64,000 bases of DNA. Source: a virus. Lineage: Duplodnaviria; Heunggongvirae; Uroviricota; Caudoviricetes. Both the position numbers and the translations under genes were made by a program. The stretch lies in IMG/VR virus record IMGVR_UViG_3300042561_002062, positions 85,525-149,524 of that record; one strand, given 5' to 3'. The notes under the pieces are model-generated. The model did not search any database. It was given only the letters and a program-made list of their open reading frames with translations, and was not told the DNA's origin. Position 1 is the first letter of the stretch. The number at the start of each line of letters is the position of its first letter. Positions 1,761 to 46,464 of the stretch are shown here, piece by piece.

Positions 1761-1893
1761 TTTTTTAGGAAGAGACAACTTTTTTTGGATATATACTATA
1801 CTTTTCTCTAAGAAACCTCAAAAATAATTTCATAAAAAGTTTGGTAATCCAAAAACTTTGTATTATCTTTGTAGTGTTGATTTAACAAACTAT

Positions 1894-1967
1894 CGCGGAG
1901 TAGTAGAAGATGGTATCTCGCCAGGCTCATAACCTGGAGATCGCTGGTTCGAGTCCAGCCTCCGCTA
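1894..1967 (+). tRNA. tRNA-Met (anticodon CAT), initiator-like (C1 mismatched with nt 72, as in bacterial fMet)
   Basis: Anticodon arm ccagg-CTCATAA-cctgg, T arm gctggTTCGAGTccagc, acceptor cgcggag/ctccgct; D stem weak. Confidence 0.7.
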
Positions 1968-1991
1968 CAAAAAAACTTACTCTGTTATCAA

Positions 1992-2064
1992 GCGGGAGTA
2001 GCTCAGTTGGTAGAGCACGATCTTGCCAAGATTGAGGCCGTGGGTTCAAATCCCATCTCCCGCT
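1992..2064 (+). tRNA. tRNA-Gly (GCC)
   Basis: acceptor gcgggag/ctcccgc, D arm gctcagttggtagagc, anticodon loop TTGCCAA, T loop TTCAAAT. Confidence 0.85.
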
Positions 2065-2107
2065 CAAAAATTTGGTGAGAGTAAGTTTTTTGATTATCTT
2101 TGTTGAT

Positions 2108-2130
2108 AGTTCTTTGACATCTTGGAAATA
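2108..2130 (+). promoter_or_regulatory. repeated promoter-like motif GTTCTTTGACATCTTGGAAA (copy 1) upstream of tRNA-Thr
   Basis: Near-identical about 20-nt motif containing a TTGACA hexamer also at 3018..3040 and 4113..4135, each 15-50 nt upstream of a tRNA. Confidence 0.5.
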
Positions 2131-2135
2131 AAATT

Positions 2136-2208
2136 GCCTCTATAGCTATAACGGTAGAGCATCGCACTTGTAATGCGAGGGTTGGCGGTTCGAATCCGTC
2201 TGGGGGCT
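2136..2208 (+). tRNA. tRNA-Thr (TGT)
   Basis: acceptor gcctcta/tgggggc (G-U pairs), anticodon arm tcgca-CTTGTAA-tgcga, T arm ggcggTTCGAATccgtc. Confidence 0.8.
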
Positions 2209-2362
2209 CACAAAAGAAAAAACTTTTTGGTGAGGTTTTATGGATGCAATACCCAGTCCTAAAACTATTCAATGTTCAACGAAAGTTGACCACTCGGTGC
2301 AATACCCGAGACATCTCAAGAGTGATGGGATTTGAGAGGTGTGGAGTTTTTTCTTTTCTTAT

Positions 2363-2436
2363 GGTTCGTTAGTAGAGTTGGTTACAATATCGCACTGTCA
2401 CTGCGAAGGTCATGGGTTCGATTCCCATACGAACCG
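2363..2436 (+). tRNA. tRNA-Asp (GTC)
   Basis: acceptor ggttcgt/acgaacc, anticodon arm tcgca-CTGTCAC-tgcga, T loop TTCGATT. Confidence 0.85.
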
Positions 2437-2651
2437 CAATGAGTAAGAGATACTCAGCAGTCTCACCAAAGACTCATTTAATCTATGGTCGGTTCTAAAG
2501 AGGACATCGTCAACGCCTCTTTCGTGGGATTAAAGGCAGGTAGCAGAGCCTCCCAGTAGCTTGGATGTTTTAATGAGGGATGCCTCGCAGGTTTTTAAGA
2601 AATAGAAAACCGAAATAACTACTCACCTGGGATCTCAGGGTGGGAAAACAT

Positions 2652-2725
2652 AGGGGAATATATCAATTGGTTAGATTACGTGCTTTGGGAGCACGAGGTT
2701 GTGGGTTCGAGTCCCGCTTCCCCTA
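2652..2725 (+). tRNA. tRNA-Pro (TGG)
   Basis: acceptor aggggaa/ttcccct, anticodon arm cgtgc-TTTGGGA-gcacg, T loop TTCGAGT. Confidence 0.85.
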
Positions 2726-2859
2726 CGAGGGTATGCATCGAAAGATGTTGTGAGTAACTCGGGTGAGTACGAAACGGACAACAATTCTAGAAGTCCCTTT
2801 TGAGCGAAACCCTTAGGTTGTAGAGGCAGTGGGTCGACACCTCATACCTTCTCTAAAAT

Positions 2860-2958
2860 AGTCAGGTGGCGAAATTGGTAGACGCTAGCTGGAAAGAGTG
2901 ATTTAGGAGTAATTACTAAGTTGGTTCACTCATATAGGTTCGAATCCTGTCTTGACTA
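2860..2958 (+). ncRNA. aberrant tRNA-like RNA A: Leu-type D arm plus T arm and acceptor, anticodon arm replaced by a 6-bp stem (gagtga/tcactc) enclosing a 24-nt loop
   Basis: 5' agtcagg-tg-gcgaaattggtagacgc ... ataggTTCGAATcctgt-cttgact-a; no 5-bp stem / 7-nt loop anticodon arm can be drawn. Confidence 0.55.
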
Positions 2959-3072
2959 CAAAAAAAAAAATAAAGAAAGTGGCGAAAGTTCAAAAAAAAC
3001 ACCTATATTTGTATCACGTTCTTTGACATCTTGAAAACAACCCAGAAACATCTGTGAAGATATAAGTTTCAT

Positions 3073-3144
3073 GCTCCGTTCGTCTAGGGGTTAGGACACC
3101 AGATTTTCATTCTGGTAACAGGGGTTCGATTCCCCTACGGAGTA
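3073..3144 (+). tRNA. tRNA-Glu (TTC)
   Basis: Colinear with the E. coli tRNA-Glu layout: gctccgt-tc-gtctaggggttaggac-a-ccaga-TTTTCAT-tctgg-taac-aggggTTCGATTcccct-acggagt. Confidence 0.85.
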
Positions 3145-3337
3145 CGGAGATAGACAAACCGCATCTATCGGGTCATTGCTCTAGACCTTTAACAGAGCAC
3201 GATTTATCGGGTTATCGCGAAACCAGGTCTTGGAATCAGAAAGATGACAATTTCTCCAAGTAGTCGGACTTTTTTTTGAGGATGCTCACTTTGTTTTTTG
3301 AAAAAGTAAAAAACAAAAAACTACTACTCACTATAAG

Positions 3338-3368
3338 GGGTAAGTGAGGGTTCCGGATAAAACCGGAA
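3338..3368 (+). terminator. intrinsic-terminator-like hairpin inside the tRNA array
   Basis: ggttccgg-ataaaa-ccggaacc followed by a TTTTCTTTT run. Confidence 0.45.
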
Positions 3369-3380
3369 CTTTTCTTTTAA

Positions 3381-3454
3381 GGGCCCTTAGCTCAGTAGGT
3401 TAGAGCGTCTGACTCATAATCAGGTGGTCGTAGGTTCGAGCCCTACAGGGCCCA
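3381..3454 (+). tRNA. tRNA-Met/Ile2 (CAT), second copy
   Basis: acceptor gggccct/agggccc, anticodon arm tctga-CTCATAA-tcagg, T arm gtaggTTCGAGCcctac. Confidence 0.85.
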
Positions 3455-3516
3455 CAAAATATATACATTCTTGAGTTGAAAAACTTAAAGCTATTATATA
3501 GTATAATACTAACTTT

Positions 3517-3591
3517 GGTCCCGTAGCTCAGTCTGGATGGAGCGACTGCCTTCTAAGCAGTAGGTCATTGGTTCGAATCCAATCGGGATCA
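3517..3591 (+). tRNA. tRNA-Arg (TCT)
   Basis: acceptor ggtcccg/cgggatc, anticodon arm actgc-CTTCTAA-gcagt, T loop TTCGAAT. Confidence 0.85.
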
Positions 3592-3780
3592 CAATTACTT
3601 ATTTGAAAAAAATAAAAAGGAACAAAACTTTTCTAATATATACAATATACACATTATGAAAAATCAAATACATAACCAAATTAGTCTTTATCTCCAGAAG
3701 TGGAATGCGTGTGTATTTGCCAAAAATAAACCGAGGTTAGAAATGTTTTGATACTATAAACAACATAAACTAAAACTTAA

Positions 3781-3810
3781 CCTCGGGACAAAATCTCGAG
3801 GTTTTTTGTT
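3781..3810 (+). terminator. intrinsic-terminator-like hairpin
   Basis: cctcggg-acaaaat-ctcgagg (7 bp incl. G-U) followed by TTTTTTGTTTT. Confidence 0.5.
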
Positions 3811-3814
3811 TTAT

Positions 3815-3886
3815 ACGGGCCTGATGTCAACGGCAGACCGTCTGACTTGCAATCAGAACGATTGGGTTCGATTCCCACAGTGTCCA
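3815..3886 (+). tRNA. tRNA-Cys (GCA)-like, possibly degenerate (acceptor stem does not pair well)
   Basis: Good anticodon arm tctga-CTTGCAA-tcaga and T arm tgggTTCGATTccca, but no convincing 7-bp acceptor; a canonical Cys(GCA) exists at 5636..5706. Confidence 0.35.
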
Positions 3887-3892
3887 CAACAA

Positions 3893-3966
3893 GGGGTAAA
3901 AGCACATAAGGATGTGCAACCGCCAAACGGCGGGTGGCTTGGGTTCGAATCCCAGATACTCCACCA
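3893..3966 (+). ncRNA. tRNA-like element with genomically encoded 3' CCA and no canonical anticodon arm
   Basis: 5' ggggtaa ... hairpin gcac-ataaggat-gtgc, hairpin ccgcc-aaac-ggcgg, T arm ttgggTTCGAATcccag, then atactcc-a-CCA. Confidence 0.4.
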
Positions 3967-3970
3967 TTAT

Positions 3971-4041
3971 TGTCCCCTCGTCTAACGGCAGGACAGCAGA
4001 CTTTGATTCTGCTTATCGAGGTTCGAATCCTTGGGGGACAA
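3971..4041 (+). tRNA. tRNA-Gln (TTG)
   Basis: acceptor tgtcccc/ggggaca, D arm gtctaacggcaggac, anticodon arm gcaga-CTTTGAT-tctgc, T arm cgaggTTCGAATccttg. Confidence 0.8.
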
Positions 4042-4136
4042 CGAAAAAAAAAAAGAAAAAATGCTTGGATCGAGAAAGATATCGCACTATCTTTGTAATC
4101 AAATAGAAGGTAGTTCTTTGACATCTTGGAAAATAT

Positions 4137-4208
4137 GCTCTCGTGGCGCAACGGTGGCGCAGGATACTTATATTATCAAGGTTACAGGTTCGAATCCTGT
4201 CGAGAGTA
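4137..4208 (+). tRNA. tRNA-Ile (TAT) (putative AUA decoder)
   Basis: acceptor gctctcg/cgagagt, D arm gcgc-aacggtg-gcgc, anticodon loop CTTATAT with a 4-bp + mismatch stem, T arm acaggTTCGAATcctgt; preceded by the TTGACATCTTGGAAA motif. Confidence 0.65.
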
Positions 4209-4408
4209 CACGTTCCGAAACAAGACAACGGATAGTGTGCCCTACACGATGAGAAACGGAGTGATGTCCGTATGGGAACGTACATTGGTGTATAGGGATA
4301 ACACCAGGGCAAGTCAGCCCGACCTCGTGAGGACGAATGACTATTCCTAACTCAGTGATGAGGACAGCCGTGACACCGGTAAGTTGGATAGAAGAGGGTG
4401 TCAAACAT

Positions 4409-4555
4409 AGTCAGGTGGCGAAATTGGTAGACGCAGCTGTGATGATTTTGCTGGAAGGTGTAACTCCTTAACAAGTAACTCGCGATTACTGTTTAAATAT
4501 TAGCAGGGTTAATCAGTTCCCAATCATCGTGAAGGTTCGAATCCTTCTTTGACTA
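4409..4555 (+). ncRNA. aberrant tRNA-like RNA B (about 147 nt): same acceptor/D arm as A, with about 105 nt of structured insert closed by a 7-bp stem gatgatt/aatcatc
   Basis: agtcagg-tg-gcgaaattggtagacgc-[insert]-gaaggTTCGAATccttc-tttgact-a; insert has nested stems (tgctg/cagca, ggg..ccc). Confidence 0.5.
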
Positions 4556-4639
4556 CTTGAAAATGGTGAAAAATTCTACCAAGAATTTAACATCTCTTAC
4601 CTATTAAGATTTAGGTGACAGTCGGAATAGACGACAAAT

Positions 4640-4713
4640 TCCTCGGTAGCTCAGATGGTTAGAGCACTTGACTGTTAATCAGGGGGTCGTTGGTTCGAGT
4701 CCAACCCGGGGAG
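4640..4713 (+). tRNA. tRNA-Asn (GTT)
   Basis: anticodon arm cttga-CTGTTAA-tcagg, D arm gctcagatggttagagc, T arm gttggTTCGAGTccaac. Confidence 0.8.
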
Positions 4714-4717
4714 CGAA

Positions 4718-4790
4718 GACTTCGTAGCTTAATTGGTAAAGCACCTGGCTTTTAACCAGGGGAGTAGCGGTTCGACCCCGCTCGGGGTCA
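4718..4790 (+). tRNA. tRNA-Lys (TTT)
   Basis: acceptor gacttcg/cggggtc (G-U pairs), anticodon arm cctgg-CTTTTAA-ccagg, T arm agcggTTCGACCccgct. Confidence 0.8.
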
Positions 4791-4796
4791 CATCAT

Positions 4797-4878
4797 ACCG
4801 ATGTGGCGAAATAGGTAGCCGCGCTAGTCTTAGGAACTAGTGTCTTACGACGTGAAGGTTCGAGTCCTTTCATCGGTA
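4797..4878 (+). tRNA. tRNA-Leu (TAG), type II
   Basis: acceptor accgatg/catcggt, D arm gcgaaataggtagc, anticodon arm ctagt-CTTAGGA-actag, long variable arm, T loop TTCGAGT. Confidence 0.85.
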
Positions 4879-4887
4879 CGAAAATTT

Positions 4888-4962
4888 GCACCTTTAGCTC
4901 AGCAGGTTCAGAGCATTTGCCTTACAAGCAAAGGGTCGCTAGTTCGAATCTAGCAAGGTGCA
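4888..4962 (+). tRNA. tRNA-Val (TAC)
   Basis: acceptor gcacctt/aaggtgc, anticodon arm tttgc-CTTACAA-gcaaa, T arm gctagTTCGAATctagc. Confidence 0.85.
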
Positions 4963-4963
4963 C

Positions 4964-5067
4964 CCACTCTTAGTGTTATGTGGTAAAACACACTGACCTT
5001 TGTGTCGCCTGGTACTGCAGTATCCGAACACAGAGCGAGTAAGTTGGTTCGAATCCAACAGAGTGGA
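4964..5067 (+). ncRNA. aberrant tRNA-like RNA D (about 104 nt): acceptor ccactct/agagtgg, D arm and T arm present, anticodon arm replaced by stem tgtgt/acaca enclosing a 22-nt loop
   Basis: ccactct-ta-gtgt-tatgtggtaaa-acac ... tgtgt[cgcctggtactgcagtatccga]acaca ... gttggTTCGAATccaac-agagtgg-a. Confidence 0.45.
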
Positions 5068-5073
5068 CAATAT

Positions 5074-5165
5074 AGTCAGGTGGCGGAATGGTATCCGTTA
5101 CTAATGTGGGAAGACCCCTGCAATGTTCTTAAACCACACTACAGGTTCGAATCCTGTCCTGACTA
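5074..5165 (+). ncRNA. aberrant tRNA-like RNA C (about 92 nt): same acceptor as A/B, internal stem tgtgg/ccaca enclosing a 24-nt loop
   Basis: agtcagg-tg-gcggaatggtatccg ... tgtgg[24 nt]ccaca ... acaggTTCGAATcctgt-cctgact-a. Confidence 0.5.
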
Positions 5166-5308
5166 CAAAACGCAATGAACAGAAGTATGGAACAAAGACC
5201 AGCGCAGGTCTCCATATGGAGTTAGCACCCTCAGCCTGGGCCCAGAGAAAACTCTGATGAAGCTGTTAAGATTGGAGCGAGATGGGTACTCCAACATTGT
5301 GTTTATCT

Positions 5309-5381
5309 GGTGATGTAGCTCAGTTGGTAGAGCAAGGGACTGAAAATCCCTGTGTCGGTGGTTCGATTCCGTCCATCACCA
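5309..5381 (+). tRNA. tRNA-Phe (GAA)
   Basis: acceptor ggtgatg/catcacc, anticodon arm aggga-CTGAAAA-tccct, T loop TTCGATT. Confidence 0.85.
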
Positions 5382-5390
5382 CACAAATAC

Positions 5391-5472
5391 GCCTGTATCG
5401 CATAGCGGCAATTGCAACTGACTGTAAATCAGTCCTCATTCGAGTCCGGAGGTTCGAGTCCTTCTGCAGGCA
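5391..5472 (+). tRNA. tRNA-Tyr (GTA), type II
   Basis: acceptor gcctgta/tgcaggc, anticodon arm actga-CTGTAAA-tcagt, long variable arm, T arm ggaggTTCGAGTccttc. Confidence 0.8.
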
Positions 5473-5477
5473 CACAT

Positions 5478-5551
5478 TGGAATATAGCTCAGTTGGTTAG
5501 AGCATTTGACTGATATTCAAAAGGTCGCTGGTTCGAATCCAGCTATTCCAA
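5478..5551 (+). tRNA. tRNA-Ile (GAT)
   Basis: acceptor tggaata/tattcca, anticodon arm tttga-CTGATAT-tcaaa, T arm gctggTTCGAATccagc. Confidence 0.85.
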
Positions 5552-5556
5552 CATAA

Positions 5557-5628
5557 GGCCCCTTAGGCTAATGGATAAACTGCTTCGCTACGGACGAAGT
5601 GTTGAACGTTCGAATCGTTTAGGGGCTA
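5557..5628 (+). tRNA. tRNA-Arg (ACG)
   Basis: acceptor ggcccct/aggggct, anticodon arm cttcg-CTACGGA-cgaag, T arm gaacgTTCGAATcgttt. Confidence 0.8.
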
Positions 5629-5635
5629 CAATTCG

Positions 5636-5706
5636 GTACTGTGTCCGACTGGCAAGGTGGGGCTCTGCAAAAGCTCTTATATTGGTTCAAATCCAATCAG
5701 TACCTC
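5636..5706 (+). tRNA. tRNA-Cys (GCA)
   Basis: acceptor ggtactg/cagtacc, anticodon arm gggct-CTGCAAA-agctc, T arm attggTTCAAATccaat. Confidence 0.8.
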
Positions 5707-5714
5707 AAAAATTA

Positions 5715-5786
5715 CGGGTGTGGCTCAATTGGTAGAGCAATGGTCTCCAAAATCATAGGCTGGGAGTTCGAGTCTCTCCACCCGTG
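5715..5786 (+). tRNA. tRNA-Trp (CCA)
   Basis: acceptor acgggtg/cacccgt, D arm gctcaattggtagagc, anticodon arm atggt-CTCCAAA-atcat, T loop TTCGAGT. Confidence 0.85.
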
Positions 5787-5793
5787 CTTGAAT

Positions 5794-5867
5794 AGCGAAG
5801 TAGCTCAGTTGGTTAGAGCACAGGATTCATATCCCTGAGGTCAGCAGTTCAATTCTGCTCTTCGCTA
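5794..5867 (+). tRNA. tRNA-Met/Ile2 (CAT), third CAT species
   Basis: acceptor agcgaag/cttcgct, D arm gctcagttggttagagc, anticodon loop TTCATAT, T arm agcagTTCAATTctgct. Confidence 0.8.
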
Positions 5868-5876
5868 CCCATTTAT

Positions 5877-5951
5877 GGTGGTCGTAGCTCAGATGGTTAG
5901 AGTGCCTGATTGTGGTTCAGGAGGTCGTGGGTTCGATTCCCATCGGTCACC
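5877..5951 (+). tRNA. tRNA-His (GTG) with encoded G-1 and C73
   Basis: g-gtggtcg acceptor, anticodon arm cctga-TTGTGGT-tcagg, T arm gtgggTTCGATTcccat, discriminator C. Confidence 0.85.
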
Positions 5952-5956
5952 CCAAA

Positions 5957-6043
5957 GGAAGATTGGCTGAGAGGTCTATAGCGGCACCCTGCTAAGGTGT
6001 TAGTCGGGAAACTGGCTCATTGGTTCGAATCCAATATCTTCCG
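5957..6043 (+). tRNA. tRNA-Ser (GCT), type II
   Basis: acceptor ggaagat/atcttcc, anticodon arm gcacc-CTGCTAA-ggtgt, long variable arm, T arm attggTTCGAATccaat. Confidence 0.85.
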
Positions 6044-6113
6044 CAAAAAAAAAAACCTGGTTTGTTTTCAAGATTGTCTAGAAACAATTACCTATCTAAA
6101 TTATATACCCAAT

Positions 6114-6563
6114 ATGAAAAGATTCAGAACCGTAGAAGGTCAATATGTTGATGTTGTTGAACATACACTTTCTATTATGAAAAAACATCCGAATATGAAA
6201 GTTCATATCGGAACAGATTCACAAAACCTAGGTATAGAAACCTCGTTTGTGACTGCTATTGCCTACAGGTTTGGAATCCGTGGTGTGCATTACATCTTTA
6301 CAAAAGAAAAAATACCTCTAGTTAGAGATACTTTTTCTAGACTATTTGATGAATGTGCAAGAACTATTGAAATTGCTCAATGGTTTTCTGATAAAATTAA
6401 TGTTGTAGTAGAAATAGATATGGATTACAACCAAGACGAGTTTTCAGTAAGTCATAAACTTATTGGTGCTACTCGTGGTTGGGCACTATCACTTGGATAC
6501 AAAGTAAATGTAAAACCTGATATTCAGATAGCTACAAAAGCTGCGGATTATCATTGTAGATAA
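6114..6563 (+). CDS. hypothetical protein (start moved to the first ATG downstream of tRNA-Ser)
   Basis: Track ORF 5997..6563 begins inside tRNA-Ser; internal ATG at 6114 (MKRFRTVEG...) is the plausible start. Confidence 0.5.
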   Translation: MKRFRTVEGQYVDVVEHTLSIMKKHPNMKVHIGTDSQNLGIETSFVTAIAYRFGIRGVHYIFTKEKIPLVRDTFSRLFDECARTIEIAQWFSDKINVVVEIDMDYNQDEFSVSHKLIGATRGWALSLGYKVNVKPDIQIATKAADYHCR

Positions 6564-29915: not shown

Positions 29916-30599
29916 ATGAAAAGAATGAAACTTTTTGAAGAGTTCAATCAACTACAAGGTGACAACTTTCAGGAAAATACAAATCGCGAAATTTATATCC
30001 TAATAGGACCTCCAGCAGTTGGAAAATCTACTTGGATCGAAAATAATCTGATGGATAAAAATCCACATATTATCAATAGAGATTTAATAGTAGAACAGGT
30101 AGCCGAAGAAATGGGTCTTACCTACGATGATATGTTTTCAGTTCCAGGTGCGGATAAAAAAGAAGGAGATGTTGATGATAAATTCGGAACAGTAATTAAA
30201 TCACCTAGTTGGATGACTTGGCAAAAACTTTCTTATGATAAAATATCCCAAGCCAACGAAGAAATACAAAGAAGACTTGATAGAAGAATATCAGAAAGTT
30301 CCGGAAAATCTTGTGTTGTAGTTGATATGACTAACATGACTAAAAAATCCAGAAAAGGAATGCTCGATAAAGTTCTAGCAGCTACTGGTAGTGGTTATAA
30401 AAAGATTGCGGTAGATTTTGAGTTTAAAGGATTTGAAGATGTTATATATTCAGCTTCAGAGAAAAGATCACGCGAGTATAAACAAAGAGGTAAGAGTAAA
30501 ACTATTTCGAAGGAAGTATTGAACAGAATGTTTTCACATTACGAAGCTGTTGATGATAGCGAAGGTTTTGACGAGATTATCGTAGTTCCTCATTACTAA
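29916..30599 (+). CDS. P-loop polynucleotide 5'-kinase (T4 Pnk kinase-domain-like)
   Basis: ILIGPPAVGKSTW...NPHIINRD parallels T4 Pnk GCPGSGKSTW..NP..NINRDD. Confidence 0.6.
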   Translation: MKRMKLFEEFNQLQGDNFQENTNREIYILIGPPAVGKSTWIENNLMDKNPHIINRDLIVEQVAEEMGLTYDDMFSVPGADKKEGDVDDKFGTVIKSPSWMTWQKLSYDKISQANEEIQRRLDRRISESSGKSCVVVDMTNMTKKSRKGMLDKVLAATGSGYKKIAVDFEFKGFEDVIYSASEKRSREYKQRGKSKTISKEVLNRMFSHYEAVDDSEGFDEIIVVPHY

Positions 30600-35382: not shown

Positions 35383-36264
35383 ATGAAAACATTCAACCTG
35401 GCCCATCCCGAAAAATCCGAGGTCAAATTCAAAATAAATCGATTTCCTGACGGACAGCAATCTGTTACTATTGAGGACGCTCCTGCGTTTCTTCAAGGAC
35501 ATGATATCAGAATCAAAAGCCGAATGAATAACTTCAAAGATTTGGAATTGATTATTTGTGCAAACCAAGCGCTACGTAACCTTTTTGTATCATCAGTTAG
35601 TCTTTACCTTCCATACTTCATGGGAGCTCGTTCTGACCGCCGATTCACCGAAGGTGATGTTCACTACCTTAAACAAGTCATTTGTCCTATCATCAATTCT
35701 CAGAACTTCAATAGCATCACTGTATTGGATCCTCACTCTGATGTATTAGAAGCCTGCTTGGATAACTACCAAAAGATCGACAATAGCAGAATTGTAGAGC
35801 AAGCTCTTACTGATATTGACAACAGTGATGGTGCTCAGAACAGAATTGTATTGGTCTCTCCTGATGCTGGGGCTTACAAAAAAATATTTGATGTAGCACA
35901 AAAGTTTGGTATCAATAGGATCATCACCGCCACAAAAGTTCGCGATATTAAGACTGGTAAAATTCTTCACACAGAAATCCCTACTCTAGACCAAGCCGAA
36001 GATCTGAAGTACGTAATTGTTGATGACATCTGTGACGGTGGCCGAACCTTCATTGAACTTGCTAAAGCTATTCACGGTAGCCGTCCTACTGCTAAGGTAT
36101 ACCTGGTAGTTACACATGGTATCTTTAGTAATGGATTTCTAGAACTTAGTAGAGAACTAGAAAAGATCTACTCCTCCAATAGCTATTCTGATCGTAATGA
36201 TATTGAACACGATAGTCAATACACAGTTGCCAAAGAATTCCTCAAACAATTTAACGTATTCTAA
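35383..36264 (+). CDS. divergent PRPP-synthetase homolog (candidate ADP-ribose pyrophosphokinase, Adps-like)
   Basis: PYFMGARSDRRF (Prs PYFGYARQDR-like), VIVDDICDGGRTF PRPP loop, VVTHGIFS; much more divergent than the canonical prs at 22912. Confidence 0.55.
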   Translation: MKTFNLAHPEKSEVKFKINRFPDGQQSVTIEDAPAFLQGHDIRIKSRMNNFKDLELIICANQALRNLFVSSVSLYLPYFMGARSDRRFTEGDVHYLKQVICPIINSQNFNSITVLDPHSDVLEACLDNYQKIDNSRIVEQALTDIDNSDGAQNRIVLVSPDAGAYKKIFDVAQKFGINRIITATKVRDIKTGKILHTEIPTLDQAEDLKYVIVDDICDGGRTFIELAKAIHGSRPTAKVYLVVTHGIFSNGFLELSRELEKIYSSNSYSDRNDIEHDSQYTVAKEFLKQFNVF

Positions 36265-40471: not shown

Positions 40472-41950
40472 ATGAACCCACTACTTCTTACCGATGGATA
40501 TAAGACAGGCCATCACCAACAATACCCAAGGGGCACAACACTTGTCTATTCTAACTTTACCCCACGATCGAACAAATACGGCCCGAAAGGTTGTGACAAG
40601 GTCGTTTCATTTGGTCAACAAATGGTCATGCAACAACTACACGAAGTTTTTCAAAGAGATTTCTTCTCTAGACCAAAAGATCAAGTATGTGGTGAGATGA
40701 AACAAGAACTCTCGATGTATCTAGGTATAGACTACGATGTTAGCCACTTTGAAGCACTGCACGATCTAGGCTATTTGCCTATCGCAGTTCAGGCGCTCTC
40801 TGAAGGAACGCTGGTTCCTATCAAGGTTCCAGTGTTGACGATCTACAACACTCACCCAGATTTCTACTGGCTGACCAACTACCTGGAGACTATTTTGTCT
40901 AATTTGATGTGGAAACCTATGACAAGCGCAACCATCGCCCACCAGTACAGAAAAGTTCTGACCAAGTGGATGGAAAAGACCGACAAGGAAAACGCCTGGT
41001 TTATTGATTGGCAAGGGCACGACTTCTCTATGAGAGGTATGGACTCTGCCGAAGCGGTAATCTCTTCTGGCTTGGGTCACCTTACATCTTTCTCTGGAAC
41101 CGACTCGCTGCCTGCTATTCACGGAGCCCGCAAGTATTACGGTGCTGAAGGTTTCGTCGCCGGTTCGGTGCCTGCAACCGAGCACTCGGTAATGTGTGCT
41201 GGAGGCAAGGAAGATGAAGAATCCACCTTCCGCCGCTTGCTAGAGACTTACCCCAAAGGAATTCTTTCGGTTGTATCTGATACTTGGGATCTCTGGAGAG
41301 TATGTACTCAACACGTGGTGGCTCTGAAAGAAGAGATCTTAGCCCGTGATGGTAAGTTGGTTATCCGTCCTGACTCAGGCGACCCAGCTGATATTCTTTG
41401 TGGATTAAATACTCGCTCTAAATTGGTAAGTTTGGTAGATGAAGATCATCCCTCATATAAAGGAGTTATTGAATTACTTTGGGATGTATTCGGAGGAACT
41501 GTAAACGAACAAGGTTACAAAGTTCTTGACCCACATATCGGAGCAATCTATGGTGATTCTATCACAATCGAAAGAGCCGACGAAATCTGCAAACGTTTGG
41601 AAGCCAAAGGATTCGCATCAACCAACGTGGTACTAGGTATCGGTTCATTCACTTACCAGTTCAATACTCGTGATACATTTGGTTTCGCTATGAAGGCAAC
41701 CTACTGCGAGATTAACGGTCAAGGCCAAGAGATATTCAAAGATCCTATCACGGACGATGGTACCAAAAAATCTGCAACCGGCTTGCTCTGCGTGACCAGA
41801 GACGAGTACAGCGGAGAGTACATGCTGACGGACCGAGTTGATTGGACAACCGCTCAATCAGGTGATCTCAAAACAATTTACCGTGACGGATCGTTTGAGA
41901 ACACAACTACTCTATCCCAAATACGGGAAAACTTAAAGAAAGACCTATAA
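40472..41950 (+). CDS. nadV: nicotinamide phosphoribosyltransferase family protein (NAMPT/NadV, or the homologous Namat)
   Basis: 492 aa; MNPLLLTDGYKTGHHQQYP, GHDFSMRG, GTDS, RPDSGDP: NAMPT family hallmarks. Confidence 0.8.
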   Translation: MNPLLLTDGYKTGHHQQYPRGTTLVYSNFTPRSNKYGPKGCDKVVSFGQQMVMQQLHEVFQRDFFSRPKDQVCGEMKQELSMYLGIDYDVSHFEALHDLGYLPIAVQALSEGTLVPIKVPVLTIYNTHPDFYWLTNYLETILSNLMWKPMTSATIAHQYRKVLTKWMEKTDKENAWFIDWQGHDFSMRGMDSAEAVISSGLGHLTSFSGTDSLPAIHGARKYYGAEGFVAGSVPATEHSVMCAGGKEDEESTFRRLLETYPKGILSVVSDTWDLWRVCTQHVVALKEEILARDGKLVIRPDSGDPADILCGLNTRSKLVSLVDEDHPSYKGVIELLWDVFGGTVNEQGYKVLDPHIGAIYGDSITIERADEICKRLEAKGFASTNVVLGIGSFTYQFNTRDTFGFAMKATYCEINGQGQEIFKDPITDDGTKKSATGLLCVTRDEYSGEYMLTDRVDWTTAQSGDLKTIYRDGSFENTTTLSQIRENLKKDL

Positions 41951-44160: not shown

Positions 44161-44781
44161 ATGTCAGGAATGAAGGTATTATTTTTAGATCATGATGGTG
44201 TAATTTGTCTATATAAAAACTGGGCAAGTCGAACCAAAAAAAGAGCTCAGTGGAGAAGACTCTTTCCTACAGCCTATGCTAATGACGAAAGAGTTCCTGT
44301 CAAGTGGAGATTTGATGATTTTGATTCCGGTGCAATTAAAGTTCTAAATCAGATAATAGAAGAAACCGGATGCGAGATTGTTGTAAGTAGTGATTGGAGA
44401 AGAAATTCTAGTCTTGAAGAGATGGGAGAATACTACCAGTTACATGGCATATTAAAAAGACCCATAGATTTTACTCCAGTTTTTGACCCGAATTGGAGAA
44501 GAGATGGTTTTTTGCCAGGATCGAAAGAATTTCCATGGTCAAGAACTTATGAACTAGAACAAGAAAGATATTTCGAGATCTTGAAATGGTTATCTCTTCA
44601 TCCAGAGGTTAGTAACTATTGTGTAGTAGATGATCTTGATATGGGAAATACTTGGAAAGATTACTCTGGTGAAGGTAAGCGCGATTGGGGATTTCAAAAC
44701 TACGTAAGAACCCCTCTTTCAACCGAGGGAATAAAACAGCTAGGAATAGCACAAAAAATAATAAACATTCTAAATAATTAA
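44161..44781 (+). CDS. HAD-like phosphatase (candidate polynucleotide 3'-phosphatase)
   Basis: VLFLDHDGVI (DxDxV motif I); directly upstream of an RNA ligase. Confidence 0.5.
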   Translation: MSGMKVLFLDHDGVICLYKNWASRTKKRAQWRRLFPTAYANDERVPVKWRFDDFDSGAIKVLNQIIEETGCEIVVSSDWRRNSSLEEMGEYYQLHGILKRPIDFTPVFDPNWRRDGFLPGSKEFPWSRTYELEQERYFEILKWLSLHPEVSNYCVVDDLDMGNTWKDYSGEGKRDWGFQNYVRTPLSTEGIKQLGIAQKIINILNN

Positions 44782-44784
44782 ATT

Positions 44785-45807
44785 ATGGAAAGAAAACTAG
44801 CAACTTTAAGAAGAATAAAAAAACTGATGCCTATTGAAGGAGCAGATGCCATAGAACTAGCTCTTGTGGATGGATGGCAAGTTGTAGTAGCAAAAAATGT
44901 TGGATATCGTCAGGGAGATCTAGTTATCTACTGCGAGATAGATTCTTTTTTACCGATTAGAGAAGAGTTTGAATTTTTACGTAGAACATCTTATAAAAAA
45001 ATGGCAGATAGGGAAGGATTTCTTCTTAAAACTATTCGGCTACGCGGTCAAATTTCTCAAGGTTTGATACTTCCTATTACCGTTCTAGGTGATGATACAT
45101 CTGGATTATACGAAGGTATGGATGTTACTGAAAAATTAGGTATCGTTAAATACGAAGCACCAATACCTGCATCTTTACAAGGAAAGGTTAAGGGTAATTT
45201 TCCATCATTTATTCCTAAAACAGACGAAGAAAGAGTTCAGAATCTAGAAAAAGAATACAATGAACTAAAATTCAGTTCTAAACATCAACTTTACGTAACT
45301 GAAAAATTAGATGGTTCTTCTTATACGGTCTATCTTAATCGTGGTGAATTTGGTGTTTGCTCACGAAATCTTGAACTATTAGAAACAGAGGATAACACCT
45401 ATTGGAAAGTAACCAGAGATCTTAAAATAGAAGAAAAGTTAAGATCACTTGGTAGAAATATATCTCTACAAGGTGAGCTTATTGGTGAAGGTATCCAAGG
45501 AAATCCATACAAACTTCGTGGGCAGACAGTAAAGTTTTTCACCGGATATGATATAGATAGAGGGCAGCGTATTGGTATTCGTGATTTTTTAAATTTACTT
45601 AAAAATCTTGGGCTTGAAAGTGTTCCGGTTCTTCAAATGGGTGATTTTACCCTACCGGAAACTGTATCAGATATGCTAAAATGGGCAGAAGGTCCGTCGG
45701 TTCTTAATCCGAACTTTCCAAGAGAAGGTGTAGTAGTCCGTAGTCTTGATGGAACTGTCTCTTTCAAAGCTATATCAAATCAATTTCTTCTAAAAACAGG
45801 TGGTTAA
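44785..45807 (+). CDS. ATP-dependent RNA ligase (KxDG)
   Basis: VTEKLDGSSY motif I, 340 aa. Confidence 0.65.
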   Translation: MERKLATLRRIKKLMPIEGADAIELALVDGWQVVVAKNVGYRQGDLVIYCEIDSFLPIREEFEFLRRTSYKKMADREGFLLKTIRLRGQISQGLILPITVLGDDTSGLYEGMDVTEKLGIVKYEAPIPASLQGKVKGNFPSFIPKTDEERVQNLEKEYNELKFSSKHQLYVTEKLDGSSYTVYLNRGEFGVCSRNLELLETEDNTYWKVTRDLKIEEKLRSLGRNISLQGELIGEGIQGNPYKLRGQTVKFFTGYDIDRGQRIGIRDFLNLLKNLGLESVPVLQMGDFTLPETVSDMLKWAEGPSVLNPNFPREGVVVRSLDGTVSFKAISNQFLLKTGG

Positions 45808-45819
45808 ACAAAAAAAAAT

Positions 45820-46464
45820 ATGAAAAACATTTATCTGGATGATCAGAGAACACCCCATAATCATCACATGGATTGGGTTGTTGTTAGAAATTACGAACAA
45901 TTCATCGCAGCGGTCGATGCGATCGGACTAGAAAACATTGGACTGATGTCTCTTGATCACGATCTAGGACCATCAGCTATTAGGGAATGGGATCGTAACG
46001 TTCTTAAAAATTATCGTATAGACTACGAAAATATTACCGAAAAAACAGGACTTGATGTAGCAAAATGGATAGTCGATCAGTGGAAATCAGGAAGTCCTGT
46101 GTGTAGAGTTATGATACACTCTTCGAACTGCATTGGTTCAGCAAATATGATGGGTATAATTAATAATTATAAGCACCTTAATAGATTACCACAAGATTGT
46201 AAAAGGTGGGTAGTACCTTTCACACACGAAGATTATCCTGGAGCCACCCCACCTCAAATTTTAGCTGAGCAGCTCCTTAGAAAACTCACGATGTACAAGG
46301 ACTACCCGATAGATTATCTAACTGGACAAGTAGCTAAAACATCTACTTTAAATAATAGTACAGAAGTTATTTTGATGCTGGAAAGTTTCATAGATCTTTT
46401 GGGTGACTACAGCAAAGATGACCTAAAAAAAGTAGTAGATCATATTAAAACTTTGGATATTTGA
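45820..46464 (+). CDS. CPPR-like domain protein (paralog of 19688..20137)
   Basis: IYLDDQRTP..WVVVRNYEQF..SLDHDLGP shared with paralog. Confidence 0.55.
   Translation: MKNIYLDDQRTPHNHHMDWVVVRNYEQFIAAVDAIGLENIGLMSLDHDLGPSAIREWDRNVLKNYRIDYENITEKTGLDVAKWIVDQWKSGSPVCRVMIHSSNCIGSANMMGIINNYKHLNRLPQDCKRWVVPFTHEDYPGATPPQILAEQLLRKLTMYKDYPIDYLTGQVAKTSTLNNSTEVILMLESFIDLLGDYSKDDLKKVVDHIKTLDI

Follow-up and report, generated by a model that had tools for sequence, protein, structure and literature searches.

The window, which is the whole 64,000-nucleotide stretch of phage DNA that was analysed, is filled with phage and auxiliary genes and carries a dense tRNA array, whose units are all on the + strand according to ARAGORN. 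The canonical tRNAs, called by ARAGORN at default settings and by the Rfam tRNA model, are listed below; the last one is a solitary gene outside the array, called by ARAGORN, and the box upstream of it comes from a TAnnTTTG search.

1894..1968, + strand, tRNA-Met(CAU), initiator-like, with a C1xU72 mismatch
1992..2065, + strand, tRNA-Gly(GCC)
2136..2209, + strand, tRNA-Thr(UGU)
2363..2437, + strand, tRNA-Asp(GUC)
2652..2726, + strand, tRNA-Pro(UGG)
3073..3145, + strand, tRNA-Glu(UUC)
3381..3455, + strand, tRNA-Met(CAU)
3517..3592, + strand, tRNA-Arg(UCU)
3971..4042, + strand, tRNA-Gln(UUG)
4137..4209, + strand, tRNA-Ile(UAU)
4640..4714, + strand, tRNA-Asn(GUU)
4718..4791, + strand, tRNA-Lys(UUU)
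4797..4879, + strand, tRNA-Leu(UAG), with A1:U72 as in the chassis RNAs described below
4888..4962, + strand, tRNA-Val(UAC)
5309..5382, + strand, tRNA-Phe(GAA)
5391..5473, + strand, tRNA-Tyr(GUA)
5478..5552, + strand, tRNA-Ile(GAU)
5557..5629, + strand, tRNA-Arg(ACG)
5635..5706, + strand, tRNA-Cys(GCA)
5714..5787, + strand, tRNA-Trp(CCA)
5793..5871, + strand, tRNA-Met(CAU), the third CAU species
5878..5954, + strand, tRNA-His(GUG), with encoded CCA
5957..6044, + strand, tRNA-Ser(GCU)
17448..17532, - strand, tRNA-Leu(UAA), with a TATATTTG box 11 nt upstream

A sequence-only reading had described this region as a phage tRNA array, and this is supported, as are its 19 amino acids, its three CAU species and the initiator-like mismatch in the tRNA at 1894. 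It overcounted the canonical tRNAs at 27, since ARAGORN at default settings gives 23 in 1894-6044, to which one non-canonical tRNA-Ala is added. Alanine, reported as the only amino acid missing, is missing for default callers only, and a tRNA-Ala(UGC) sits at 3817-3886. Three more matches, at 2860-2958, 3817-3886 and 5074-5165, score low with the Rfam tRNA model yet exceed its gathering score. The T-loop pattern GGTTCRANYC matches 27 times in the whole window (1.6 expected), and its 25 copies inside the array, together with four tRNAs with variant T-loops, make 29 tRNA-shaped units. The AT-rich codon usage fits the anticodon set: ATA makes up 36% of Ile codons and AGA 60% of Arg codons, and their counterparts, tRNA-Ile(UAU) and tRNA-Arg(UCU), are in the array.

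The non-canonical tRNA-like elements that had been noticed number six (N1-N6), and five of them (N1 and N3-N6) have tRNA acceptor and T arms and lack an anticodon.

2860..2958, + strand, N1, Leu-chassis tRNA-like RNA, acceptor AGUCAGG/CUUGACU, A73, 49-nt insert
3817..3886, + strand, N2, non-canonical tRNA-Ala(UGC), G3:U70, 3' acceptor strand with a bulged nucleotide, 4-bp T stem
3893..3966, + strand, N3, alanine-type acceptor (G3:U70, A73, encoded CCA) and T arm
4409..4555, + strand, N4, Leu-chassis tRNA-like RNA, 98-nt branched insert
4964..5067, + strand, N5, anticodon-less tRNA-like RNA of a second type, acceptor CCACUCU/AGAGUGG, long arm with terminal tetraloop
5074..5165, + strand, N6, Leu-chassis tRNA-like RNA, insert unrelated to the same-slot insert of close relatives

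N2 scores 32.4 bits with the Rfam tRNA model and is called by ARAGORN in relaxed mode; its G3:U70 pair is invariant in four homologs, which show compensatory changes at 7 pairs. In N3, the D and anticodon arms are replaced by two hairpins, with a tetraloop at the anticodon position, and the fold has a z-score of -3.2. ARAGORN reports N3 as 'tRNA-???', and its tmRNA match is weak and covers only the tRNA-like domain (18.3 bits versus a gathering score of 47). Such weak Rfam matches in the array (YrlA with 21-29 bits, the tmRNA tRNA-like domain with 18 bits) would allow N3, and perhaps the chassis RNAs, to be Y-RNA-like or tmRNA-like partners of a Ro/TROVE-like DUF2828 protein, and a DUF2828/DUF7788 protein (PHROG 'RNA-binding protein') is indeed encoded in an RNA-repair cassette 12 kb away. 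This is very improbable, as the YrlA and tmRNA scores are far under the gathering scores of 69 and 47, the YrlA matches overlap ordinary tRNAs, N3 has neither a tag reading frame nor pseudoknots, and no DUF2828 homolog was found in roughly 300 fetched loci. It also counts against this idea that the termini of YrlA RNA are in its Ro-binding stem, and those of the array RNAs in the acceptor stem.

N1 has a Leu-type D arm and a T arm and no anticodon loop, and N1, N4 and N6 each keep the acceptor stem, Leu-type D arm and T arm of tRNA-Leu, with a variable structured insert replacing the anticodon and variable arms. Their family, which combines this tRNA-Leu-like frame with a hypervariable insert, is found at at least 212 IMG/VR loci. 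Among the 151 unique units obtained by a 5'-anchored scan, position -1 is U in 127/150, position 73 is A in 130/151 and position 74 is C in 145/151, and ARAGORN assigns anticodons, scattered and implausible ones, to 31 only. When only the D and T arms serve as anchors, the units have acceptor stems that vary yet remain paired: 7/7 pairs covary and 96% of cells are paired, with a covariation score of 0.56 versus 0.15 in shuffles (0/500). The insert is swapped like a cassette; the 148 inserts fall into 114 clusters, and relatives have unrelated inserts in the N6 slot though the flanks are 87-100% identical. Neither a common motif nor a consistent closing helix was found in the inserts, no antisense target was found within the window, and no protein gene is consistently linked to these RNAs. 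No Rfam family or paper describing them was found, and the family is apparently a large, undescribed one.

The low tRNA-model scores or missing calls and the absent anticodon arm are what decaying tRNA pseudogenes would show, and N1 and N3-N6 could then be functionless duplication debris in a fast-evolving array, given that phage arrays turn over and tRNA order differs among relatives. Such decay is highly improbable for a frame that is nearly invariant over at least 212 loci while its middle gets replaced, that covaries at all seven acceptor pairs and that retains the processing-related positions -1, 73 and 74; compensatory changes in N5 and in one insert family also argue against it. Alternatively, the Leu-chassis units could be tRNA-Leu genes with short introns, whose splicing restores a decoding tRNA. 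Group I introns occur in bacterial tRNA-Leu genes, and the intron mode of ARAGORN can force calls on N1, N4, N5 and N6. These forced calls give four identities (Val, Phe, Thr and Cys) for one frame, and a shared anticodon stem cannot be reconstructed, because the sequence adjoining the D and T arms is unconserved. At 20-170 nt the inserts are below the size of group I or II introns, and no endonuclease that splices short tRNA introns is known from bacteria, so this explanation is extremely improbable.

The phage carries two RNA-repair cassettes, and its RNA-repair genes comprise two ligases, two cREC domains, a HAD phosphatase and the DUF2828 protein, a heavy investment that points to conflict over tRNA. 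In such a conflict the chassis RNAs could be decoys, whose conserved top half (acceptor, T arm, elbow and Leu-type D arm) titrates a host protein that binds tRNA bodies, such as a tRNA-cleaving defence nuclease or leucyl-tRNA synthetase, and whose functionless insert varies only to escape cleavage. Conservation limited to the frame fits this, and the anticodon is not needed by several tRNA nucleases or by LeuRS, being dispensable for the E. coli enzyme. A pure decoy is unlikely, with some appreciable chance of being correct: an insert family preserves its structure through compensatory changes within the insert, the 3-7 different versions per phage genome would be superfluous, and most members of the family occur singly, in small phages that lack tRNA arrays. 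The Leu-chassis frame is most plausibly a natural 'tRNA scaffold', which would provide processing and stability for a variable functional RNA module. The leading guess is that these modules bind or decoy host factors in a tRNA conflict, because the phage also has the two RNA-repair cassettes. As the inserts offer no shared motif, target, helix or linked gene, the idea of a functional cargo rests on conservation in small insert families (3-5 sequences).

The second type of anticodon-less RNA, N5, has homologs at four fetched loci, where both its acceptor and its long arm show compensatory changes. Between the tRNAs there are also GC-rich 'spacers', at least three of which are, by their conservation and predicted folds, conserved structured RNAs.

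2210..2362, + strand, sp2210, structured spacer RNA candidate (folding z-score -3.9)
2438..2651, + strand, sp2438, conserved structured spacer RNA of about 214 nt
2727..2859, + strand, GC-rich spacer (46% GC), possible RNA
4210..4407, + strand, sp4210, conserved spacer RNA with homologs at six loci
5167..5308, + strand, sp5166, conserved structured spacer RNA of about 140 nt

A long terminal helix closes sp2210, in which two hairpins show the same loop, GCAAUACCC; no homologs of it were found among the fetched loci. The homologs of sp2438, at five loci, have 70-81% identity and conserved hairpins. The conserved blocks of sp4210 are ACGAUGAGAA, UAUUCCUAAC, GGACAGCC and ACACCUGUAAGUUGGAUAGA, and sp5166, when aligned with four loci, has compensatory changes in four helices. 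Any function of these and of all other non-tRNA RNAs of the island is putative.

The signals that may control transcription of the array are promoter boxes, found by the TAnnTTTG search, a repeated 20-nt motif and two terminator-like hairpins. The sigma-A promoter consensus of Bacteroidota is TTTG / TAnnTTTG.

1840..1871, + strand, P1, predicted Bacteroidota-type promoter: TTTG, 20-nt spacer, TATCTTTG; 22 nt before tRNA-Met
2071..2102, + strand, P2, predicted promoter: TTTG, 20-nt spacer, TATCTTTG
2109..2128, + strand, boxA-like antiterminator copy 1 (GTTCTTTGACATCTTGGAAA)
3004..3011, + strand, P3, predicted -7 promoter box TATATTTG
3018..3037, + strand, boxA-like antiterminator copy 2, one mismatch
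3346..3378, + strand, terminator-like hairpin GUUCCGG-AUAAAA-CCGGAAC, then U-run (by folding; stem 3350-3369, T-run 3370-3378)
3779..3813, + strand, terminator-like hairpin of 10 bp, then U-run (by scan; hairpin and T-run 3779-3803)
4088..4095, + strand, P4, predicted -7 promoter box TATCTTTG
4113..4132, + strand, boxA-like antiterminator copy 3

The TAnnTTTG boxes start at 1864, 2095, 3004 and 4088, and two of the four have TTTG exactly 20 nt upstream. The 20-nt motif occurs three times, as the sequence-only reading had it (0.01 expected by chance), 7, 35 and 4 nt before tRNA-Thr, tRNA-Glu and tRNA-Ile(UAU), and its copies start 6, 6 and 17 nt after the ends of P2, P3 and P4. The same reading took it for a promoter, in which the perfect TTGACA would be the -35 element of a sigma-70-type or phage-modified polymerase starting just before the tRNA, and the three repeats, each upstream of a tRNA, are in keeping with that. 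The TTGACA lies 10-45 nt before the mature tRNA 5' ends, and it cannot be a -35 element because the motif is downstream of the TAnnTTTG boxes and 4-35 nt before the tRNA; for two of the three copies, a -10 box placed 16-18 nt further on would be inside the mature tRNA. A scan gave no sigma-70-type promoter at any copy, Bacteroidota sigma-A boxes sit just upstream of the motif, and the identical 20-mer is found in CRISPR leaders and 16S-23S spacers (see below), which makes a promoter very improbable.

Most likely, the 20-nt motif is a boxA (Nus-factor) antiterminator copied from the host. The exact 20-mer is present in 27 IMG/VR contigs, mostly heading tRNA runs. A point against boxA is that three viral contigs have a canonical promoter downstream, not upstream, of it. 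In genomes, the identical 20-mer lies upstream of CRISPR arrays at 12 loci, mainly of Bacteroidota and one in a Chlorobiota MAG, in the same orientation and 67-208 nt before the first repeat. It is also found in the 16S-23S spacer of two genomes, both proteobacterial MAGs, some 60-70 nt upstream of the 23S rRNA. An exact-match search found none in Bacteroidota rRNA leaders, rRNA operons being rare in MAGs. About half of the 41 genome matches lack an informative context, and chance could account for a few. CRISPR leaders and 16S-23S spacers are known places of boxA, so these positions, with those at the head of tRNA runs, form a boxA signature. The boxA/Nus antitermination of CRISPR arrays has been demonstrated (Stringer et al. 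2020, PMC7665894); the boxA calls of that study include CGCTCTTTGACATCGTGAAA, and TTCTTTGACA is contained in 8 entries of its supplementary table.

Both hairpins previously proposed as terminators are real, the one near 3338 being seen by folding and unlisted by the scan. That they partition the array cleanly is unsupported, because neither a recognisable promoter nor a boxA precedes tRNA-Met(3381) or the N2-N3-Gln group, which come directly after the hairpins.

The best explanation of the locus as a whole, to which we give a probability of about 0.7, is that a phage infecting a member of the Bacteroidota carries a non-coding RNA island at 1840-6045. The island would provide a nearly self-sufficient decoder set, made of the 23 canonical tRNAs, the non-canonical tRNA-Ala and the tRNA-Leu(UAA) elsewhere in the window, with five anticodon-less tRNA-like RNAs and at least three conserved structured spacer RNAs interleaved among the decoder tRNAs. 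From sequence features we infer its promoters, its boxA function, and the processing and stability of its RNAs. Host RNA polymerase would start at the TTTG-N20-TAnnTTTG promoters, and in three units the boxA element would be the first thing transcribed. If boxA acts here as it does in rRNA operons and CRISPR arrays, its nascent RNA would bring in NusB/NusE and further Nus factors, and the Nus-bound polymerase would resist Rho, which otherwise terminates long untranslated transcripts. Every unit with an acceptor/T-arm minihelix would next be excised by RNase P together with an enzyme for 3' processing, and the structured spacers would come free as by-products of processing. A pyrimidine at -1, a purine at 73 and C74 are common to the tRNAs and the tRNA-like RNAs of the array.

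The jumbo- or megaphage character suggested by the sequence-only reading is more than a 64-kb stretch can support, and the closest IMG/VR relative is a 105-kb contig. The order of the tRNAs varies among relatives, and phage arrays are known for such turnover.

The tRNA island on the + strand holds 23 tRNA genes in an unbroken run from 1894 to 6044 (ARAGORN, default settings), out of 24 in the window, and these 23 cover 19 amino acids. All of them are also found by the Rfam tRNA model with 50-78 bits. The sequence-only reading had counted 27 canonical tRNAs, which is too many against the 23 of ARAGORN. The remaining gene, which has a TATATTTG box 11 nt upstream, lies far from the array:

17448-17532, - strand: solitary tRNA-Leu(UAA), found by ARAGORN

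Three extra weak matches to the Rfam tRNA model exceed its gathering score of 29 (2860-2958, 3817-3886 and 5074-5165). Matches to the T-loop pattern GGTTCRANYC number 27 across the window, against an expected 1.6, and 25 of them are within the array; four array tRNAs have variant T-loops, and therefore the array comprises 29 tRNA-shaped units, 23 canonical and six non-canonical. The latter, named N1 to N6, bear out an earlier remark on several non-canonical tRNA-like elements, and although mentioned there in passing they are the most interesting part of the array:

2860-2958, + strand: N1, tRNA-like RNA on a tRNA-Leu frame (Leu-chassis), which matches the frame throughout
3817-3886, + strand: N2, non-canonical tRNA-Ala(UGC), 32.4 bits with the Rfam tRNA model against a gathering score of 29
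3893-3966, + strand: N3, unit that combines a T arm with an acceptor of the alanine type (G3:U70, A73, encoded CCA)
4409-4555, + strand: N4, Leu-chassis RNA, which matches the frame throughout
4964-5067, + strand: N5, second anticodon-less type, whose acceptor differs and whose long arm has a tetraloop at its end
5074-5165, + strand: N6, Leu-chassis RNA, which departs from the frame only in the 3' half of its D arm

When N2 and the solitary tRNA-Leu(UAA) are included, the phage can supply 25 decoders, and all 20 amino acids are covered; under strict wobble rules these decode 79% of codons across 60 ORFs of the window, with Ser UCN and Gly GGR as the main gaps. ATA makes up 36% of the Ile codons and AGA 60% of the Arg codons, and these are read by the array tRNA-Ile(UAU) and tRNA-Arg(UCU), respectively; the codon usage of the phage agrees with the array anticodons, in line with the usual reading of codon compensation. 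In itself the array is an ordinary phage tRNA cluster, which is a known kind. Like the clusters of T4, T5, KVP40, mycobacteriophage cluster C and huge phages, it is a dense single-strand run with about one tRNA per amino acid, and its anticodons, including the two just named, are skewed to U34/G34 for AT-rich phage codons. Unlike in those clusters, about one third of its 4.2 kb is not tRNA, being made of anticodon-less tRNA-like elements and conserved structured RNAs, and its transcription units appear to be headed by a boxA. A megablast search with the array against deposited phage genomes returned short tRNA-level matches only and no close relative.

A 20-nt motif that contains TTGACA has copies at 2109, 3018 (with one mismatch) and 4113, whereas 0.01 copies are expected by chance. 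Its copies end 7, 35 and 4 nt before a tRNA, so their number and their position just upstream of tRNAs are as the sequence-only reading had described. The interpretation given there, a promoter-like motif, is wrong in an informative way. A sigma-70 scan is empty at all three copies, and at two of the three the -10 element for the TTGACA would fall inside the tRNA. TAnnTTTG, the Bacteroidota -7 promoter element, occurs instead on the + strand of the array at 1864, 2095, 3004, 3510 and 4088, with TTTG placed exactly 20 nt upstream of the first two boxes, and the promoter type predicted in the window is that of the host and is not sigma-70-like. The motif copies begin 6, 6 and 17 nt past such a box, and since they follow the boxes and precede the tRNAs, the motif would be the first thing to be transcribed.

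The core of the motif, GUUCUUUGACA, is close to the boxA consensus GYUCUUUNACA. Published boxA calls contain TTCTTTGACA or CTCTTTGACA (PMC7665894), and the table of Stringer et al. 2020 has calls such as CGCTCTTTGACATCGTGAAA and AGTTCTTTGACAATCAAAAT (PMC7665894). The exact 20-mer is found in 27 IMG/VR contigs, mostly a few nucleotides ahead of the first tRNA in a run, which is Gln at +5 or +6 or Val at +5. A scan with one genome per species gave 41 loci. In 12 of them, mainly from Bacteroidota with one Chlorobiota MAG, the 20-mer lies 67-208 nt upstream of the first CRISPR repeat and in the same orientation; two have it in the 16S-23S spacer, some 60-70 nt upstream of the 23S rRNA, and three ahead of tRNA runs. 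The 12 CRISPR leaders and two rRNA spacers thus carry the identical sequence in cellular operons that use boxA, while the exact-match genome scan recovered none in Bacteroidota rRNA leaders. The tRNA set, the motif copies with their positions and the sharing of the 20-mer with CRISPR leaders and rRNA spacers are direct observations.

Because of its position, its presence in CRISPR leaders and rRNA spacers and the published boxA calls, the motif GTTCTTTGACATCTTGGAAA is best read, with high probability, as a boxA that would keep RNA polymerase going through long untranslated tRNA transcripts. Untranslated CRISPR arrays are shielded from Rho by boxA/Nus antitermination, and 52 of 187 genera, most of them from the Proteobacteria, Bacteroidetes and Cyanobacteria, have a boxA between cas2 and the CRISPR array (Stringer et al. 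2020, PMC7665894). As in rRNA operons and CRISPR arrays (PMC7665894), the motif would stand just after a promoter, here a predicted one, and at the head of a putative long untranslated multi-unit transcript. Unlike those boxA elements, this candidate heads predicted phage tRNA units, in three copies within 2 kb; a literature search turned up no earlier account of boxA from such arrays. Phages whose tRNA islands were driven by boxA would need the Nus factors of the host to avoid Rho while their untranslated RNA is made, and the mechanism shown for rRNA and CRISPR arrays would then extend to phage tRNA islands, with a simple genetic handle. One context does not fit a simple leader of untranslated RNA: in three IMG/VR loci (L003, L024 and L025) the exact 20-mer is followed downstream by a canonical promoter, TTTG-N19-TATTTTTG, and then by an ORF for a four-helix bundle.

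By eye, this four-helix-bundle protein is like the Avd protein of diversity-generating retroelements. In six Bacteroidales CRISPR leaders (L147, L149, L155, L165, L168 and L181) the distance from the 20-mer to the first repeat downstream is constant at 135-137 nt, and repeated TTGTCG motifs stand on both sides of the 20-mer. The L168 copy is directly 3' of a small ORF that looks cas2-like. A human faecal phage contig (L303, MT835665.1, around 2440-2570) has a TACTTTTG box, then the boxA-like variant GTTCTTTACAGAAAA and then tRNA-Asn, which is the promoter-boxA-tRNA order of the window array.

Among the non-canonical units, N2 is the closest to a tRNA. It forms a cloverleaf with the anticodon loop CUUGCAA (UGC) and the alanine identity pair G3:U70, and ARAGORN calls it tRNA-Ala at a relaxed threshold only. 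Homologs are present in three IMG/VR contigs. In the alignment of four homologs 97% of the cells are paired when one nucleotide is bulged from the 3' acceptor strand, seven pairs have changes on both sides and G3:U70 is invariant, which argues for a conserved non-canonical tRNA-Ala and against debris. Close relatives have a canonical tRNA-Ala(UGC) in a Met-Ala-Thr-Gly block, which is rearranged in the window. The earlier statement that only Ala is missing from the array therefore holds for the default ARAGORN calls and fails once N2 is taken as the tRNA-Ala(UGC).

The other five units (N1, N3, N4, N5 and N6) have a 7-bp acceptor and a 5-bp T stem with a TPsiC-type loop. They receive no tRNA call from ARAGORN at default settings, and in place of an anticodon arm with a 5-bp stem, a 7-nt loop, U33 and an anticodon they have tetraloops or branched inserts. 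N5 is conserved in four other contigs, with compensatory changes. N3 has two hairpins in place of the D and anticodon arms, one of which ends in a tetraloop, and its fold has a z-score of -3.2. It resembles a bare tRNA-like domain of tmRNA or an acceptor minihelix of tRNA-Ala by its alanine-type acceptor, its T arm and its lack of an anticodon. Unlike tmRNA, it has no mRNA-like part and no pseudoknots. A tmRNA was rejected for N3, which scores 18.3 bits with the Rfam tmRNA model against a gathering score of 47, gives no hit in the tmRNA mode of ARAGORN and is only 74 nt long. A viral scan for orthologs with the N3 3' end returned only ordinary tRNA-Ala, tRNA-Tyr or tmRNA-like genes.

N1, N4 and N6 have in common the acceptor AGUCAGG/CYUGACU and a standard T arm, and their D arm differs little from the one in tRNA-Leu; across positions 4-27 the consensus chassis frame is a 96% match to annotated phage tRNA-Leu genes. 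Unrelated sequence of 44-98 nt takes the place of the anticodon and variable arms. The family was defined, from 5' to 3', by a 7-bp acceptor, UG, a GCGRAAU(U)GGUAGACGC D arm, a variable insert, U, an RCAGG-UUCGAAU-CCUGY T arm, the 3' acceptor strand, A73 and C74. The 5' 16-mer of the frame is present in at least 120 IMG/VR stretches, with up to five copies each, and a 5'-anchored scan of the fetched loci gave at least 151 unique units of 69-278 nt. Their frame is almost invariant, with ACAGGUUCGAAUCCUGU in 77 and CCUGACU in 127. Most units have U at position -1 (127 of 150), A at 73 (130 of 151) and C at 74 (145 of 151), a context shared with the real tRNAs of the array. Of the 151, ARAGORN recognises only 31 as tRNAs, and the anticodons that it assigns (such as AGG, AAU, ACU and AUA) are scattered and for the most part implausible; automatic tRNA counts in phages would be inflated or distorted by such elements.

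A second scan, anchored on the D and T arms only, gave at least 93 unique units, for which ARAGORN made no call in 73, an implausible one in 14 and a tRNA-Leu call in six; on inspection these six have no convincing anticodon arm. The acceptor stems of this set vary in sequence yet stay paired, with 96% of the cells paired, and they have a covariation score of 0.56, whereas shuffles give 0.15 (none of 500 reaches 0.56) and slid registers at most 0.09. Because the stems differ and covary at all seven pairs, the chassis frame is under selection as an RNA helix. Two known kinds of RNA were rejected for these units. They are not intron-containing tRNAs, as removal of the insert restores no single consistent anticodon arm. 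They are also not YrlA or another bacterial Y RNA, since N1, N4 and N6 end in an acceptor stem and not in a Ro-binding stem; the best YrlA match in the array has 28.7 bits against a gathering score of 69 and overlaps ordinary tRNAs.

The 148 inserts fall into 114 clusters. At the N6 slot, which lies between N5 and the spacer that follows, four other loci (L009, L021, L007 and L027) have flanks 87-100% identical to those of the window and an unrelated insert, which looks like cassette exchange and not drift; the unit in L007 and L027 has an extra 33-nt hairpin inside its D loop. This rapid turnover suggests a role in an arms race. A pure decoy, whose insert has no function of its own, is an unlikely explanation. 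No sequence motif shared among the inserts was found, a closing helix at the insert base is as frequent as in shuffled inserts (17% against 16%), and the inserts of N1, N3, N4, N5 and N6 have no antisense targets within the window beyond the level of shuffled sequences. In insert families with several members the helices stay paired via compensatory changes. The reading of the chassis as a natural tRNA scaffold for functional RNA cargo is preferred, tentatively and at less than even odds.

At least 289 chassis units are present in at least 212 of the fetched loci, of which 23 are large tRNA arrays and 132 have no other tRNA nearby. No protein gene is consistently linked to them, the top clusters being made up of ordinary genes from the replication module of a single phage group. 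Rfam lacks a model for the family and scores its members as weak tRNA, and no paper describing it was found in the literature, so that a large family of tRNA-Leu-framed RNAs with hypervariable inserts is apparently undescribed. No clear member was found among deposited or cultured phages, where a search with the concatenated frame gave only ordinary tRNA-Leu and T-arm matches.

Ponchon and Dardel reportedly engineered a tRNA scaffold for recombinant RNA, in which a foreign RNA replaces the anticodon arm. As in that scaffold, where they serve tRNA-like processing and stability, the acceptor, D and T arms are kept in the chassis; unlike this laboratory design, the chassis is natural, multi-copy and hypervariable. 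The family would give the engineered scaffold a natural counterpart and provide a large collection of structured phage RNAs that is still untouched.

Four odd tRNA genes of the cultured Flavobacteriia jumbo phage Tenacibaculum phage pT24 (L187, LC168164.1, record positions 191520-192477), annotated Sup, Undet, Pro and Undet, lie in the same kind of region, and two near-identical units among them have an 8-bp "anticodon" stem. This phage could be an experimental system for non-canonical phage tRNA-like RNAs.

Several gaps between the tRNAs are GC-rich (44-50% against 35% in the window) and conserved in other contigs. Four of these spacers hold structured RNA candidates, none of which has an Rfam match at E ≤1:

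sp2210, 2210-2362, + strand: strongest folding signal in the array, z = -3.9
sp2438: 214-nt multi-hairpin RNA, present in five other contigs
sp4210: conserved blocks in six contigs, usually between two tRNA-like units there
sp5166: aligned with four relatives, with compensatory changes in four helices

Conservation and covariation are directly observed for three spacer RNAs as well as for the tRNA-like frames. The fourth, sp2210, has no homolog among the fetched loci; it is closed by a 13-bp A/U-rich terminal helix, and two of its hairpins share the loop GCAAUACCC, which has the look of a protein-binding site present twice. Small RNAs other than tRNAs are known to be encoded together with the tRNAs of phages, and their function is unexplained (PMC3014915, PMC9697503). 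The extra RNAs of the array are, by description, like these in being non-tRNA and located beside phage tRNAs (PMC3014915, PMC9697503), and differ in forming large families in phages with Bacteroidota-type promoters, one of them with a defined tRNA-Leu frame. They offer a comparative entry to the 50-year-old question of the purpose of non-tRNA RNAs in phage tRNA regions, such as RNAC and RNAD of T4.

Two terminator hairpins had been proposed near 3338 and 3781, and both are recovered: the segment 3350-3378 folds as described, and a scan finds a hairpin with a T-run at 3779-3803. On the + strand, tRNA-Met(3381) and N2 (3817) begin 2-14 nt past these hairpins, which look like terminators, and neither is preceded by its own TAnnTTTG box. 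Termination there may be leaky, a boxA-modified polymerase may read through, or the hairpins may be processing signals and not terminators. A 31-codon ORF (MKNQIHNQISLYLQKWNACVFAKNKPRLEMF) lies at 3656-3751 on the + strand, between tRNA-Arg and the terminator at 3779. C74 follows nearly every tRNA or tRNA-like unit of the array, position -1 can pair with 73 in most, and the full CCA is encoded only by tRNA-His and N3, which together suggest a shared 3'-end maturation route that needs a CCA-adding enzyme.

The overall picture is that of a tRNA/RNA island with a boxA, processed units and a chassis scaffold, to which we give a probability of about 0.7. Host polymerase would initiate at the TAnnTTTG promoters, and the nascent boxA would load Nus factors and block Rho. 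RNase P and a 3' processing enzyme would then excise each unit that has an acceptor/T minihelix, and the chassis would serve as a natural tRNA scaffold for variable RNA modules. A broader proposal, likewise tentative and at less than even odds, is that the chassis RNAs are a widespread unrecognised class of phage non-coding RNA, in which the top half of a tRNA scaffolds fast-changing structured modules, one to seven per phage. The cassettes would be swapped between phages via the conserved frame, and their modules would target factors of the host, for instance by inhibiting or decoying them in tRNA/RNA-repair conflict. Together with the spacer RNAs, many phage "tRNA arrays" would then be multi-purpose RNA islands transcribed via a borrowed host boxA.

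The genes around the array belong to phage DNA rich in auxiliary functions, which include NAMPT, two PRPP-synthetase-like proteins, an Acb1/2H-phosphoesterase-like protein, lysozymes and a DNA methylase. Three features concern RNA or its neighbourhood:

6114-6563, + strand: RNaseH-like PF04308 gene, directly after the last array tRNA
18114-21180, - strand: RNA-repair cassette 1, with DUF2828/DUF7788 (PHROG "RNA-binding protein"), cREC and a T4 Rnl1-like ligase
44161-46464, + strand: RNA-repair cassette 2, with a HAD_SAK_2 ("Swiss-army-knife") domain, a PHA02142-type RNA ligase and cREC

The PF04308 gene is next to the array in ten IMG/VR loci, with 77-81% amino-acid identity, and is the only gene syntenic with the arrays of close relatives; its product could take part in array processing. 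The literature on DUF2828 is uninformative. An AAA_33 kinase-like gene (29916-30599) and the 2H-phosphoesterase/Acb1-like gene (25063-25605) may belong to the same RNA-repair theme. The NAMPT gene (40472-41950) and the two PRPP-synthetase-like genes (22768-23874 and 35383-36264) point to a phage NAD+ salvage module, a kind that has been reported for gastrointestinal jumbo phages (PMC11662467).
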